Assembly: GCA_965248755.1 (NCBI GenBank)
Contig: OZ252149.1
Coordinates: 1,056,001 to 1,120,000 of the forward strand
Origin: Candidatus Latescibacterota bacterium
GTDB taxonomy: Bacteria > Latescibacterota > CBDEFO01
Length of the DNA stretch: 64,000 bases
Direction of reading: 5' to 3'
Both the position numbers and the translations under genes were made by a program. The notes under the pieces were generated by a model. That model did no database searches. It saw only the letters and a list, made by a program, of their open reading frames with translations, and had not been told where the DNA came from. Of the stretch, positions 22,510 through 29,682 are shown in pieces (position 1 is the stretch's first letter; each line of letters starts with the position of its first letter).

Positions 22510-22538
22510 AATATACGATACTCACCCCAGAATGTCAA
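22510..22538 (-). promoter_or_regulatory. Sigma70 promoter for the minus-strand operon
   Basis: TTGACA-17-TATATT on the minus strand. Confidence 0.6.
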
Positions 22539-22934: not shown

Positions 22935-22991
22935 TTGACATTGCTAAAACTTTTTCTTATATTCTATATACCCTCAGGGGGTGGGGGTATA
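22935..22991 (+). promoter_or_regulatory. Sigma70 promoter plus CsoR/RcnR-type operator
   Basis: TTGACA-17-TATATT, then TATACCCtcagggggtgGGGGTATA (C/G tracts flanked by an AT-rich inverted repeat). Confidence 0.8.
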
Positions 22992-23351: not shown

Positions 23352-24299
23352 ATGAAAAGATACATCATTTTATCATCCATTCTGTGCTCTGTTGTTCTTC
23401 ATATGGTTTATCCAAAGGGGACATTGGCTCAGGGGCCACCGATCAACACCGAGACAGCGTTCGTGGTCGGTCTTGAGGGCGCCGCGCTCAGGACACTCGT
23501 TAAAACGACGAGGAAATCGAAGCTTTTAAAGGGCACCACGAAAGTCTCTGATCCTTCAGATCGACAAGTACAAGTTGTGGCTGTTCCTATTATAATTCCC
23601 TACGAATTGATTCCAAACAGAATAGTGGTCGCCGCAGCGATTCCCTATCTTCACAAGGAACTGAGTCTGACTCAGGACGGGATAAGACGTGCTCTGTCTG
23701 ACAACGGCTTTGGGGATCTTTCTCTCTTATTCAAATATCAACTCCTTCAATGGGACGCTCATCGAAAGACGACCAGAATTACGTTTAAGGGAGGGCTGAA
23801 ACTTCCCACAGGCGACCACGATGAGACGGATGAGTTGGGCGAACTTCTCCGCAGGGGGCTACAATTGGGAACGGGCTCCCTAGATTACTCAGCCGGGCTT
23901 ATCTTAACTCACAGCGTAGGCAGACTCGGGATCAACACAGACGCCATCTACACATTCAAAAGGGAGGCGGACAAGTACAGATTTGGAGACTCTTTAAATT
24001 ACGATCTTGCGGTCGGATACAGGATCTATCCTTCGGTCTATGAGACTTATCCATCGCCTTATGCCACTCTTTATTTAGAGGTAAATGGTCAGTTCAAACG
24101 AAGGGATGAGGAAAATAGAGGGACAGTCGAGGACTCAGGCGGACACATTTTGTCTCTCTCACCTGGGATACAATACATCCCTTTGAGCACATTAATCATC
24201 GAGGCATCGATACAGATTCCTGTGCTCCAGGACCTGAACGGAACTCAACTCGGGACGGACTTTGCCTTTGTAAGCGGGATTCGATGGCTGATCTTTTAG
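23352..24299 (+). CDS. Outer-membrane beta-barrel (MetA/phenol-pathway 'transporter' family)
   Basis: Signal peptide, GFGDLSL, KLPTG, LGTGS, C-terminal Phe. Confidence 0.75.
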   Translation: MKRYIILSSILCSVVLHMVYPKGTLAQGPPINTETAFVVGLEGAALRTLVKTTRKSKLLKGTTKVSDPSDRQVQVVAVPIIIPYELIPNRIVVAAAIPYLHKELSLTQDGIRRALSDNGFGDLSLLFKYQLLQWDAHRKTTRITFKGGLKLPTGDHDETDELGELLRRGLQLGTGSLDYSAGLILTHSVGRLGINTDAIYTFKREADKYRFGDSLNYDLAVGYRIYPSVYETYPSPYATLYLEVNGQFKRRDEENRGTVEDSGGHILSLSPGIQYIPLSTLIIEASIQIPVLQDLNGTQLGTDFAFVSGIRWLIF

Positions 24300-24347
24300 T
24301 CCGAAACTCAATATTAACCTGCAATGTTGAAAGGAGGTCGTTTCAAG

Positions 24348-24893
24348 ATGACGGTAAAAAGAATTCTTTCTTTGCTGCTCTCAGTTACTATTGTGTCGGC
24401 TGTACCTGTGGAGAGTCCGGCTCAGATAGAAGAGGCTACAGTTAAGGTGGACGGTCTTTCGTGCCCTTTTTGCGCCTACGGCTTGGAGAAGAAGCTCAAG
24501 AAAGTAGAAGGAGTTGAGAAGTTAGAGATCAAAGTGGATCAGGGAGTAGCCAAACTGACTGTAAAGGAGAAAAAGAACCTCTCCATCGAAGATGTAAAGA
24601 AGGCTGTGGTGAACGGCGGCTTTACCCCAAGAGAAATCGCGATTACGGTTAAAGGCCGTATGTCCGAGCATAATGGCAGAACAGTTTTAAAGTTTGCAAA
24701 GAACGCGAATGTCTTTCTGATCGCTCAGAACGAGCAGTTGAAGAAGGTCAAGGATGCGCTCAAAGGGCAGGACAAGCTCCTTCGGATAACTGGCACGCTC
24801 TCCAAGGAAAAAGTCGAAGGCCATGGGGAGCACCCTTATGTCCTGTCTATTGAACAGTTCAAGATGCTGTCCTCTACTACCAAGGTGAATTAG
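24348..24893 (+). CDS. Exported HMA-domain (MerP/CopZ-like) protein
   Basis: Signal peptide, GLSCPFC. Confidence 0.85.
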   Translation: MTVKRILSLLLSVTIVSAVPVESPAQIEEATVKVDGLSCPFCAYGLEKKLKKVEGVEKLEIKVDQGVAKLTVKEKKNLSIEDVKKAVVNGGFTPREIAITVKGRMSEHNGRTVLKFAKNANVFLIAQNEQLKKVKDALKGQDKLLRITGTLSKEKVEGHGEHPYVLSIEQFKMLSSTTKVN

Positions 24894-24894
24894 A

Positions 24895-25713
24895 ATGATG
24901 AAGGCAAAGGAATCAAGCCTGACAGCTATCCTTGCGGCACTGCTGGTGGTCTGGACGGTTTCACCCGTTCTGGCGCACGAGCCCCTGTTTGGGGTCGGGC
25001 CACACACCATCTATCAGAACGGCCTGGGGCTGGAGATGGAGCTCGAAGTCGAAGATGAGGAGGTATCCGTTCACAACGAGGCCATCTATGGGGTCACGCC
25101 CGACCTGGCTGTGACCCTGGTGGCCCCCTGGGTTCGGAAGGAGGAGGGGAATAGGTCCATCTCTGGACTGGGGGACATCAGCCTGCGGGGGAAGTGGCGC
25201 TTCTTCCGGCGGGACGGAGCGGGTCGGCAGGACGCCCTCGCCCTGGTCTTCGGTGCAAAGTTTCCCACCGGAGACGAGCAGGCGGAGATGCCTCTGGGGA
25301 CCGGATCGACTGACTTTTTCGGTGGGATCGCCGCAGGCCGGGAGTCGCGCCGGTGGTACTACTTCGGCGACCTGCGCTACCGGGCCAACACAGAGGCGGA
25401 CGGTCTGAGGCAAGGGGACATCTTCTTCTATGACGTGGCCTGGGGAGTGAGACCGGTGCGGGCGGGTTATGAGCAACCTGACCTGGTGCTCCTGGTGGAG
25501 ACCAATGGAAAGATCGCGGGGAAGGCCGAACAGGATGGCGTCACAAACCCCAACACAGGGGGACATGTGCTCTCAGTCTCGCCCGGATTTCTCTTCAGCA
25601 TCCGGAACGTGATGCTCAAAGGGGGGATCAATGTCCCTGTCCTCTGGGATCTGAACGGAGTACAGGAGGACCCAGAAACCGAGATTCTGTTCGGTGTGGA
25701 GTTTCATGTCTAG
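24895..25713 (+). CDS. Second outer-membrane beta-barrel, same family
   Basis: Signal peptide ending LA-HEP, GLGDISL, KFPTG, LGTGS. Confidence 0.75.
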   Translation: MMKAKESSLTAILAALLVVWTVSPVLAHEPLFGVGPHTIYQNGLGLEMELEVEDEEVSVHNEAIYGVTPDLAVTLVAPWVRKEEGNRSISGLGDISLRGKWRFFRRDGAGRQDALALVFGAKFPTGDEQAEMPLGTGSTDFFGGIAAGRESRRWYYFGDLRYRANTEADGLRQGDIFFYDVAWGVRPVRAGYEQPDLVLLVETNGKIAGKAEQDGVTNPNTGGHVLSVSPGFLFSIRNVMLKGGINVPVLWDLNGVQEDPETEILFGVEFHV

Positions 25714-25729
25714 TAGAGGAGGCAGAACC

Positions 25730-26514
25730 ATGCGAAAGATCGTGTTTATCTTGATAGTAGTCGCCCTGATGGCCGGGCTGAGTGTGCCGGTGCAGGCAGG
25801 TGTGAAATCTCTGACACTGAAGGTGGATGGACTTGCCTGTCCCTTCTGCGCTTACGGCATGGAGAAGAAGCTGAAGAAGGTAGAAGGGGTTGAGAAGCTT
25901 GAGATCGATCTCGACGGAGGGACGGTGACTCTCAAAATGAAGGCGCGCGTCCGTCTGACAGCCGCCTCAGAGGGAAAAGAAAAGGCCCCCGCAGGTCTTG
26001 TGGCACAGGTGCAGAAAGCCGTAACAGAAGGTGGCTTCACGCTACGAGAGTTGACGGTAACGGTGGAAGGGCAGGTGGTAGCCCAGGAAGGAGTATTGCG
26101 TCTACGGCTGTCCGGGACAGAAGAGATCCTTGTCCTAAAGGAAAATGGGAAGGTAGCTGATCTGAAGAAGGCGGTCTCAAACGGGTCAGTGACTTTAATC
26201 GGCACTCTGCAGACGGAGGACCCGATGCTTACCTTATCCGTCGAACAAGTCAGTGAAATGTCCGTTATGGAAGGCGAAGTTCATCGCCTGAAGGTCTCAG
26301 GCATGGTCTGCACCGGGTGCGCGGATGCGATCAAGGCTGCCCTGGAGAGGATCAGCTGGGTGCAGCAGCAGAGGTCGATCTGGAGCAGGGGCTGGCCCAG
26401 GTTACGGCCGCGGCAGGCAGGGTCTCTGCAGAGCAGCTCGTCGAGGCCGTCAACGGGATTGCGATGAGTGGGATGCCTGAAGGGACGTTCCAGGCATCGG
26501 TGGTGGAGGAGTGA
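25730..26514 (+). CDS. Exported two-HMA-domain protein with apparent 1-nt frameshift near 26360
   Basis: GLACPFC and GMVCTGC; the HMA fold continues in another frame (AAAEVDLEQGLAQV...) to 26514. Confidence 0.75.
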
Positions 26515-26560
26515 AGAGTTAGAAAGCTGTGATAAGAGAGAAAAAGAAGATATTAGAACG

Positions 26561-26839
26561 ATGAAGATAAAGTCATCGAGCCTGATGGCCCTTCTTGCGG
26601 CACTGTCCTGGTGTTGAATAGTGCCTGCGATCTTTGCCCTGCTCGGCTTAGCAGGGGTAGCTACTGCAAGGTTCCTTGCGATAAAGTTTTATCCTTTCTT
26701 GCTTACTCTGTCTGTCCTGCTTTTGGCAAGAGCGCACTATCTGGTGTACGTAAAGCGGCACGGGCACAGACTGAGCGTGCTTGTAGTATGGGTCTCCACC
26801 GCCTTGGTGATCGCCGTGTGGCTGCCAAGGATACTTTGA
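26561..26839 (+). CDS. MerT/MerF-like membrane protein, probable selenoprotein (C-U motif)
   Basis: MKIKSSSLMALLAALSWC*IVPAIFALLG...; in-frame TGA 26615-17 falls at the second Cys of the MerT CC-x-x-P motif; downstream hairpin ccctgct-cggctt-agcaggg. Confidence 0.75.
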
Positions 26840-26852
26840 CAAGGGAGAGATT

Positions 26853-27794
26853 ATGAGACCAGCAAGTTTGTTCCTGATAATATTGATCCTTTCGACAGGC
26901 CATCTTTACTGTTCCAAAGAGGACAAACTGCAATTCGTCTTCGTCCAGAAATGGGGAACAGAAGGAGAAATGCCAGGGCAGTTCCAGGGCCCTATAGGGA
27001 TCGCTGTTGACGATGTCGGAAGTGTCTATGTCTCCGACAGTGGGAACAATCGCATTCAAAAGTTTGACAGAAAGGGCAATGTCTTAGCCGAGTGGGGAAA
27101 AGATGGTGATGCCCTAGGAGAGCTTGCGCGTCCCATGCATATTGAAATGAAGGATAGTAAGCTCTATGTGGCAGAATATTTCAACGACAGGATACAGGTT
27201 TTTGATCCTTCTGGGAGTTTCATTGGGGCTATCGGTTGGCACCAAAAGGAGGGCGGCTATTTTGACGCCCCGGCGGGCGTATCTGTGGACAGCCAGGGGA
27301 ATATCTATGTAGCTGATTTCTACAACCACAGGATAGAAAAGTTTGATAGAAATGGCGAATTCGTACGTCAATGGGGAGATCACGGAGAAGGCGACGGACA
27401 ATTTAATTATCCCACCGATGTAGCTGTCGGTTCTGACGGTACTGTCTACGTGGCCGACGCCTACAATCATAGGATTGTCAAGTTCACGCGTGAAGGGCAA
27501 CTTCTTACGAGCTGGGGAGGTTACGGAACAGATGAAGGCAGGTTCAACGTGTCCACCGGTATAGGCTTAGACGGAAAAGATAGGATCTACGTAGCGGATT
27601 TTTACAATCACCGCATCCAGGTCTTTGGCAGCGATGGACACTTCCTTCTCCAGTGGGGAAGGCAGGGGAACGGCGACGGCAGGTTCGAACGTCCGACTGA
27701 CGTGGCAACAGACAAGGACGAAAACGTCTACGTAACAGATTGGGGGAATAATCGTATTCAGAAGTTCCGAGTCGTCAAGCAGGTGACAGAGTGA
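26853..27794 (+). CDS. Exported NHL-repeat six-bladed beta-propeller
   Basis: Six F-x-x-P-x-G/D-x-A...YVAD-x-x-NHRIQ-like repeats; signal peptide. Confidence 0.9.
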   Translation: MRPASLFLIILILSTGHLYCSKEDKLQFVFVQKWGTEGEMPGQFQGPIGIAVDDVGSVYVSDSGNNRIQKFDRKGNVLAEWGKDGDALGELARPMHIEMKDSKLYVAEYFNDRIQVFDPSGSFIGAIGWHQKEGGYFDAPAGVSVDSQGNIYVADFYNHRIEKFDRNGEFVRQWGDHGEGDGQFNYPTDVAVGSDGTVYVADAYNHRIVKFTREGQLLTSWGGYGTDEGRFNVSTGIGLDGKDRIYVADFYNHRIQVFGSDGHFLLQWGRQGNGDGRFERPTDVATDKDENVYVTDWGNNRIQKFRVVKQVTE

Positions 27795-27935
27795 AACCAC
27801 GTCGCCTACCGCCTACGGCGCGGCTCGACATCGGAACTCCGCGGGCGGGGCTTCAAACCTCACCCTTGGAAGATGCCCTCTTCCTCCAGTGGTATTCATC
27901 CGCCACGCACGAGTGGCGGTGTTCTGCCATAATCT
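27791..27935. repeat. IS200/IS605- or REP-like palindromic remnant
   Basis: gtgaaaccacgtcgcctacc...ggcggggcttc and ttcatccgccacgcacgagtggcggtgttc hairpins. Confidence 0.4.
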
Positions 27936-27998: not shown

Positions 27999-28027
27999 TT
28001 GACAGTATTCTGGATTTCTTGTATATT
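27999..28027 (+). promoter_or_regulatory. Sigma70 promoter cut off from downstream DNA by IS1380 copy 2
   Basis: TTGACA-17-TATATT, 30 bp before the IS end. Confidence 0.6.
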
Positions 28028-28056: not shown

Positions 28057-29682
28057 CCGACATTCCCCATATCACATTCATGAGGGATTATATTTCGATA
28101 CATTCTTGTTTCTGAATTAATATTACCACTTTTACATTTTTCAACAAGTACTTTTTTCAATTAAAATAGTATTTTCCTCTGAATTATCACTTTCTTTGTG
28201 TTTAAATCCTCCAATTAGAGACACCTCTCCATCGACTCACAAAAAAATGTGGCAGTTTAAACAGAATAACATCGCAATCGTTCAATCCGGGATAATATTT
28301 CGGCAAATAACCTCTTGTCTATCCCAACCTCAGCCATTTGAAACGTAATATATCCGCTGTGTCTGACAATCTTCGCTCCGATTTTGATAAATTTCACGAG
28401 GAGGCTGCGTAGTGACCAGTGTTTGATTTTCTTCGGAAGAACAAAACGTCGCAGGAAGTTGCCCAAGTTGTAAGCCAGAACAAACAGCCAGAGCCTCACC
28501 TGATTGGAGACGAAACGCTTGCATGAGAGTCGGGTCCAGTTCAGAGCATACTTGCCCTCCTTAATCCACTGCTCAGCTCTGCCACGGCCATTGTAGAAGT
28601 GTACCACGCCTTCTGGCTTGGCGCTCATGTTGGTCACGATAAATCCCACTCTTGGGAATAACTCCCCTTGGTGCCATTCAACCTTGGCGACCACTCGCCT
28701 CGATTGATCCCAACTGGCCGCTTTATATTGAAATTCATATAACGATACAATCGGTTTCCTCGGCGGTCGTCCAACTGGCCGAGTCAGCAGGTATCGTATC
28801 TTTTCATAGAGTATCTCATTTGCGGGAAGCCGAATGGCATACAAATAGCCGTTTCCCTCCAGATAATCATAAATCTCAGGCTTTGCGAATGCAGCATCGC
28901 CTCGAAAGTATTTCCTATTCTTCTTGCTCTCGTATCTCTTGACGATCGGTTCCAGAACTTCCTTCCAACGATCAGCACTGTGAACATTACCAGAGCGAAG
29001 TAGGACTCCTTCACAATCCCCGAACTGATTGAAGCAGAACACTGGATGAAAACAGGTACATCCGAAATGACCGTTGTAAGCTGATCCTTCCTGCTGGCCA
29101 TGTACCGGACTCTCCGAACTGTCCATGTCCAGAATGATTCGTTGATGCTGTGTTTTACTCATCGCTTTTTGAACCCACTTGCCATTGATATCTGACAAGT
29201 TTCTGAGATTGTCATGCTGAGTCAGTATATCAGTTTCAAAACGTCCTATCGTGTTGGAGCTGGCAGCTTGCCTGCCTTTGTCCTTCTTTCCGGTAATCGC
29301 TCGCATGACGGGATCAACGGATAATCGCTCGGCGTCATTTACATCTTCATATCCTGCAAGACGGCTGTATATCGATTGACGCAGGAGAGTAGATATATCA
29401 TGTTGGATATTACGGCCTGTGCGTTTATCGGTAAAAACCGCTGATACCGAATCAAATAATCCCAGTGCGTAATCAAGGTCACGATACGCAAGAAGTCCAC
29501 CGTTTGATGTCACCTTTGCACCATGAAATTCAAGCTTTATTCCTCCATCAAAACCTACTTTGATTCTTTCACCCTCTGGATGATCAATATTTATCCGCCA
29601 TTTATGAGTCTTATTTATTGTAATATAACATGTTCTGGCGACTTTGACAACCATTTTTCGGGTCTAATATGGCGAATGGGGG
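28057..29682 (-). mobile_element. IS1380-family insertion sequence, copy 2 (1626 bp)
   Basis: Reverse complement of copy 1; TATAT on both flanks. Confidence 0.95.
28257..29654 (-). CDS. IS1380-family transposase
   Basis: Protein identical to 448..1845 except one M/I change. Confidence 0.95.
   Translation of the reverse strand: MVVKVARTCYITINKTHKWRINIDHPEGERIKVGFDGGIKLEFHGAKVTSNGGLLAYRDLDYALGLFDSVSAVFTDKRTGRNIQHDISTLLRQSIYSRLAGYEDVNDAERLSVDPVMRAITGKKDKGRQAASSNTIGRFETDILTQHDNLRNLSDINGKWVQKAMSKTQHQRIILDMDSSESPVHGQQEGSAYNGHFGCTCFHPVFCFNQFGDCEGVLLRSGNVHSADRWKEVLEPIVKRYESKKNRKYFRGDAAFAKPEIYDYLEGNGYLYAIRLPANEILYEKIRYLLTRPVGRPPRKPIVSLYEFQYKAASWDQSRRVVAKVEWHQGELFPRVGFIVTNMSAKPEGVVHFYNGRGRAEQWIKEGKYALNWTRLSCKRFVSNQVRLWLFVLAYNLGNFLRRFVLPKKIKHWSLRSLLVKFIKIGAKIVRHSGYITFQMAEVGIDKRLFAEILSRIERLRCYSV

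Follow-up and report, generated by a model that had tools for sequence, protein, structure and literature searches.

A MerT-like membrane protein gene with a predicted selenocysteine codon in a Latescibacterota genome

A TGA codon interrupts a small membrane protein gene of a Candidatus Latescibacterota bacterium, and the question is whether this codon ends the gene or is decoded as selenocysteine (Sec). The gene lies in a window of 64,000 nucleotides (contig OZ252149.1, positions 1,056,001 to 1,120,000 of the forward strand), which is the whole stretch analyzed here; unlabelled positions below are those of the window. The original prediction held that the gene encodes a MerT-like permease and that its UGA encodes Sec. 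We consider it likely that the product is a MerT-like protein with Sec read at UGA, whose Cys-Sec pair in the first predicted helix would bind or pass a soft metal.

The interrupted reading frame and the Sec machinery

Three features define the gene.

26561..26839, + strand: MerT-like membrane protein gene, 92 residues, W-C-U-I-V-P (C18, U19); from ORF reading, NF033560 and a profile match to MerT
26615..26617, + strand: in-frame TGA, predicted Sec codon at the MerT-type second Cys; from alignment to the Cys of homologs
26637..26656, + strand: putative SECIS upper hairpin, 7-bp stem, 6-nt loop, G at loop position 2; from bSECIS geometry and folds

The frame starts at ATG 26561, ends at the stop TGA 26837-26839 and encodes 92 residues with U19. 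It was predicted to be open throughout apart from one TGA, and the sequence confirmed this. The codons TGG TGT TGA occupy 26609-26617, and the frame around them reads LLAALSWC-TGA-IVPAIFALLG. The ORF track was also said to cut the gene, and indeed the ORF list holds solely a 72-aa piece starting at GTG 26621. Hydropathy of the 92-residue protein has three peaks, near residues 16-28, 46-55 and 76-85, and three membrane helices are predicted. One Logan contig, which may come from the source sample, covers 25600-27800 with 0 differences. Contigs from two other studies also cover the TGA codon, with no change there among the rows listed. Reads or contigs with TGC or TGT would have spoken against Sec, and the contigs retain TGA. 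The TGA is not an isolated assembly slip, and a sequencing error at this codon was rejected because the contigs retain it.

The machinery for Sec, whose presence in the genome was the next point to check, is complete. The source genome is one contig of 4.54 Mb and is 98% complete. A genome search gave scores above cut-off for selA (546 bits), selB (365.6 bits), selD (365.1 bits, with one in-frame TGA of its own) and selC, the tRNA-Sec gene (72 bits). This tRNA-Sec is the sole tRNA with a TCA anticodon among the 47 tRNAs of the genome. A crude hairpin scan of the same genome pointed to two further likely selenoprotein genes, the names of which are motif matches to a review table. At G000:C1:1695149 (-), a CGU motif is followed by 418 open codons, with a hairpin, and resembles the UshA-like entry. 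At G000:C1:3726182 (+), a WUPLC motif is followed by 236 open codons, also with a hairpin, and resembles the DUF3179 entry. The genome-wide scan gave 57 of 1459 candidates and is too noisy for defining a selenoproteome.

TGA and Cys forms of the family

A protein search for homologs with the single sequence returned none from 312 candidates. A nine-member profile found 201 matching proteins among 8000 scored, 120 of which were listed. The motif WCC..P is present in 117 of these 120 listed homologs, and the window TGA aligns with the second Cys of WCCxxP in those 117. Of the other three, one shows a variant motif and two are without the pair; one of the latter is a truncated fragment that starts only past the site. 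The homologs therefore have Cys at the site, not Trp. The named members of the family are annotated as 'hypothetical protein'. A metagenome scan with WCC peptide patterns, which are unable to match TGA, gave one partial match (L018) with no motif site, and a viral pattern scan gave 2 chance matches, both in non-coding frames.

We also searched genomes in six frames, in overlapping samples of 61, 301, 301, 56, 123, 168, 165 and 52 genomes and in one collection scan. The family is present in 12 genomes, and 10 of them have TGA at the site. Thus, homologs with Cys and homologs with a conserved TGA, which the original prediction proposed to look for, were both found. The 10 TGA genomes belong to Latescibacterota and to the class of a Binataceae MAG, and every one of the 10 TGA frames runs open to the full-length end. 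Five of them have Cys-TGA: the source genome, its congener L009 (a Latescibacterota MAG), L040 from another Latescibacterota family, the Binataceae MAG L010, and L020. The window gene differs from that of the congener in 10 codons, 5 of them synonymously and 5 non-synonymously, which is uninformative. L029 (reverse strand, oriented 1531-1539) has Arg-TGA, reading WR-TGA, so that the first Cys is lost while the TGA and the stem are retained. Four genomes have two adjacent TGA codons (TGG TGA TGA) and are predicted to encode Sec-Sec, namely L030 (1540-1548, +), L032 (1528-1536, +), L037 and L038, and all four carry selA. The remaining two, L027 and L028, have Cys-Cys. selA is above cut-off in 9 of the 10 TGA genomes, and the tenth was checked for selB alone, which is present. 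As for genomes with a Cys form, both genes are present in G619, and neither was found in G461.

A tree was built from 71 rows with the two motif residues masked; the rows comprised the 10 TGA forms, 5 MerT proteins and 56 Cys proteins taken from the 120 listed. TGA forms are scattered among Cys forms, and the well-supported branches require at least 4 label changes. In this tree of few columns and unsettled bootstraps, the window protein falls in a group (93/90) that also contains L009, L040 and two Cys proteins, and long branches may be the reason why L032, L037 and L038 join MerT. Because separated TGA lineages have a common stem downstream of the site, this distribution suggests an ancestral Sec with reversions to Cys.

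The hairpin downstream of UGA and the decoding of UGA

The bSECIS model (PMC13188914) describes a loop of 3-9 nt, a stem of 4-16 bp, a G in the first two loop positions, a spacing of 16-37 nt and an MFE of -7.5 or lower. The hairpin in the window has this geometry. Positions 26637-26643 pair with 26650-26656 at 7 of 7, and the loop at 26644-26649 (CGGCUU) stands 26 nt past the UGA; with 6 nt in the loop, 7 bp and -10.9 kcal/mol it falls inside all these ranges, in a test that is unspecific. A perfect 7-bp stem with its loop 26 nt after the UGA had been predicted, and this upper stem is as stated. The lower stem proposed with it is unfixed, since it varies between four folds.

The generic hairpin test is unspecific, and the hairpin by itself is weak evidence. 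The region is no more stable than its shuffles (z -0.18 to -0.42). In a simple bSECIS-like scan, an equally stable hairpin is found after 1.3% of the 553 long ORFs that end in TGA and after 0.7% of a sample of 1500 from the 7648 Cys codons, and selD's own element reaches -4.8. Ordinary MerT CC genes pass the -7.5 threshold in 3 of 8 cases. In the Cys form L027 the hairpin is another one and more stable (-22.8 kcal/mol), and 0 of 1500 synonymous recodings were as good. This hairpin of the Cys-Cys gene (reverse strand) comes after oriented position 1557, and selA and selB were not found in the genome of L027.

Conservation in place is what makes the hairpin favor the Sec reading. The 7-bp stem pairs at 7 of 7 in six of the 10 TGA forms (the window gene, L009, L010, L020, L029 and L030), and the TGA-TGA gene of L030 has the identical 7-bp stem to the window gene. 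The corresponding stem in two Cys forms pairs at 4 of 7 and 3 of 7. Among the other TGA forms, L040 retains most of the stem and scores -7.2 in another register, and L032, L037 and L038 have a hairpin in another register. Random synonymous recoding of the seven stem codons yields 7 of 7 pairs in 1.4-2.8% per gene, the genes being non-independent. Pair counting in an alignment that included L032, with its other-register hairpin, and both Cys forms revealed no two-sided compensatory change in the stem and only one-sided ones, e.g., U-A to U-G, and in four of five measures 500 of 500 shuffles matched the observed values. It is very likely that SelB with Sec-tRNA would bind the hairpin 26 nt downstream and insert Sec at codon 19.

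Two other readings of the codon have to be weighed. The TGA might be a true stop, that is, a nonsense mutation in a decaying operon, and local decay is possible because the HMA gene just upstream is frameshifted near 26363-26368, with the same letters in the Logan contig. Against this, TGA stands at one codon in 10 genomes that are spread among Cys forms, with at least 4 forced changes; it is never TAA or TAG, and the frame is otherwise unbroken. Recurrent nonsense mutation at one codon, each time to TGA, is implausible, so that the nonsense reading was rejected and is highly improbable. UGA might instead be read as Cys or Trp through a variant code or a special tRNA, and the Cys of the homologs at this site would suit such a reading. 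TGA ends 553 of the 1757 long ORFs in the source genome, however, and therefore the genome uses the standard code; a code with UGA as Trp was rejected on this count, and the single tRNA with a TCA anticodon is classed as tRNA-Sec. Readthrough as Cys or Trp is hardly credible. Sec at this UGA, as originally proposed, is thus supported by the machinery, by the Cys homologs and by TGA in 10 genomes that include distant relatives.

Relation to MerT, the gene cluster and the metal

The description of the protein as a MerT-like permease held in part. It is related to MerT: comparison of the family profile with a profile of five MerT sequences gives probability 98.3 and E 2e-14, with CC in register, and C18-U19 aligns with the Cys pair of the first MerT helix. 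It is nevertheless below the cut-off of every MerT, MerF and MerC model, scoring 10.1 against a cut-off of 32.9 with PF02411 (MerT) and 50 bits (E 3e-13) against 130 with NF033560 (RC607-type MerT), a model that 56 of the 92 rows of the family hit with E<=0.01. Membership in MerT proper was rejected because the scores are under the model cut-offs. A PDB sequence search gave one weak unrelated match (E 0.26).

In MerT, Cys24 and Cys25 in helix 1 are described as carrying Hg(II) taken from MerP (PMC5715351). MerT of the Tn501/Tn21 type has a second, cytoplasmic pair, Cys76/Cys82, whereas the loop of the window protein is without Cys. It is more like MerT of Gram-positive bacteria (Bacillus RC607 type), which is also about 100 aa long, carries in its first helix a CC pair with xxP after it, and has a short loop without a second Cys pair; an annotated RC607-type plasmid MerT is 33% identical over 91 aa. 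The differences from it are Sec for Cys and the motifs LPWCC and RAHY, and the locus has a CsoR-type regulator, barrel and NHL genes, not merR and merA. By this analogy, the protein may work like RC607-type MerT, although it is not filed as MerT.

Selenoproteins related to MerT have been predicted before. Haft and Gwadz (bioRxiv 10.1101/2022.07.06.499078) predicted that some proteins of the MerT family, such as WP_250634603.1, are selenoproteins with a CU motif. By its description, WP_250634603.1 is likewise a MerT-related membrane protein with Cys-Sec. No tandem-Sec form was seen in the accessible part of that paper. The inventory in PMC13188914 (Table 1) lists a 'putative mercuric transport protein' selenoprotein, ABB16073.1 (PF02411); it is also a MerT-related heavy-metal transport selenoprotein, but its motif is C/SxxU, not CU as here. 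A putative mercuric transport selenoprotein also appears in PMC9312934, PMC2398784 and PMC1976440. In the part of PMC13188914 available to us, none of the 119 prokaryotic selenoprotein families has UU, and the MerT type is absent from the experimentally verified rows; the accessible text of the BSepDB paper has no mention of MerT. NCBIfam NF045683, a MerT/CopZ fusion selenoprotein, is MerT-related as well, but it is a 235-position fusion model. Membership in it was rejected, because the window protein scores 10 bits against 375 and is a stand-alone protein of 92 aa. A literature search for tandem Sec in bacteria found nothing relevant among the papers listed. Consecutive Sec residues are described in algal PDI_e with GUGUU (PMC7539508), which shares two consecutive Sec with the TGA-TGA relatives but is eukaryotic, with a thioredoxin fold and a SECIS in the 3'-UTR.

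The MerT-like gene is the sixth of seven same-strand genes in a cluster with a CsoR-type regulator.

22935..22963, + strand: sigma-70-like promoter heading the cluster, 11 of 12 matches, by consensus match only
22967..22991, no strand assigned: inverted repeat with C and G tracts directly past the -10 box; a single match to the strict pattern in the whole genome
23008..23304, + strand: CsoR/RcnR-family metal-sensitive repressor with C40, C69 and Tyr65 (PF02583, E 1e-23)
23352..24299, + strand: Phenol_MetA_deg-family protein (PF13557, E 1.6e-13)
24324..24893, + strand: HMA-domain (CxxC) protein, likely with a signal peptide, MerP/CopZ-like (PF00403; below cut-off in MerP and CopZ models)
24895..25713, + strand: second Phenol_MetA_deg-family gene, missing from the congener locus by locus comparison
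25694..26514, + strand: second HMA gene, which has two CxxC domains and a frameshift near 26363-26368; the congener locus is without it
26853..27794, + strand: NHL-repeat beta-propeller gene directly 3' of the MerT-like gene (PF01436, E 6.7e-50)

We take the inverted repeat to resemble a CsoR operator and the Phenol_MetA_deg-family protein to be an outer-membrane barrel. Tyr65 of the repressor presumably stands where copper-sensing CsoR has His. A CsoR paralog in L013 has His there and precedes a Cys-Cys MerT-HMA fusion. By eye, the neighborhoods of relatives contain barrel-like and HMA genes, MerR-like regulators and occasionally a second CC transporter gene. Two further sites, at 22510-22538 (-) and 27999-28027 (+), resemble promoters and share their hexamers and spacing with the one at 22935, and a 465-aa ORF at 28257-29654 (-), which by eye looks like an IS1380-type transposase, lies just past the cluster.

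Mercury as the substrate is not supported, as merA was not found in the genome. No protein in the source genome is above the MerA cut-off, and the two best matches are without the C-terminal Cys pair. Among the 10 TGA genomes, merA is above cut-off in 3, on other contigs. A classical mer operon was rejected because no merA was found and the local regulator is of CsoR type. The metal is uncertain because no merA was found in the genome, which suggests a metal pathway different from classical mercury reduction. By analogy with MerT, it is fairly likely that the HMA protein would hand a thiophilic ion from the periplasm, such as Hg(II), Cu(I) or Ag(I), to the thiol-selenol pair, which would pass it inward, with expression controlled by the CsoR-type repressor. 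Because there is no cytoplasmic Cys pair and merA was not found, the ion would then go to another acceptor or stay held, without classical mer reduction.

Two alternatives accept Sec and assign another role to the pair. The protein might be a metal trap or sensor, in which the selenol would capture Hg or Ag within the membrane and hardly ever release it, protecting the cell with no reductase involved. In favor of this, merA is absent in 7 of the 10 TGA genomes, the protein has no cytoplasmic Cys pair, and a second CC MerT/MerF-like gene that could do the transport lies nearby in L010, L032, L038 and L040, as judged by eye. Moreover, in the accessible part of their paper, Haft and Gwadz (bioRxiv 10.1101/2022.07.06.499078) report no selenoprotein in characterized mercury resistance. 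The annotated RC607-type MerT is without a cytoplasmic pair too, yet it belongs to a merR-merT-merP-merA operon, and most family members have plain Cys-Cys, so that a trap is unlikely. The pair might also be a redox center, forming a selenenyl-sulfide and relaying electrons through the membrane to partners that the cell exports. Mammalian thioredoxin reductase has adjacent Cys and Sec as its redox motif, and in L040 a small CxxC thioredoxin-like ORF, assigned by eye, comes after the gene. The neighbors, however, are HMA proteins and metal-type regulators, and the homology is to MerT, which leaves a redox role quite improbable.

Cys-Sec MerT selenoproteins are thus already in print, and the window gene is very likely an unannotated Latescibacterota member of this kind; the greater surprise lies in the Sec-Sec relatives. 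We lean towards a MerT-like subfamily outside existing models, in which the site alternates between Cys-Cys, Cys-Sec and Sec-Sec, one hairpin would decode two adjacent UGAs in the Sec-Sec forms, and the operons would be merA-independent. The subfamily has no Pfam or NCBIfam model, and its Sec forms are shortened by gene calling that stops at UGA. Selenocysteine is a rarity among transporters, and with close Cys-Cys, Cys-Sec and Sec-Sec relatives, sulfur and selenium can be compared directly as ligands in a protein of 92 residues. If the reading is true, these relatives would form a series for asking what selenium brings to a metal site within the membrane and how SelB handles two UGAs in a row.
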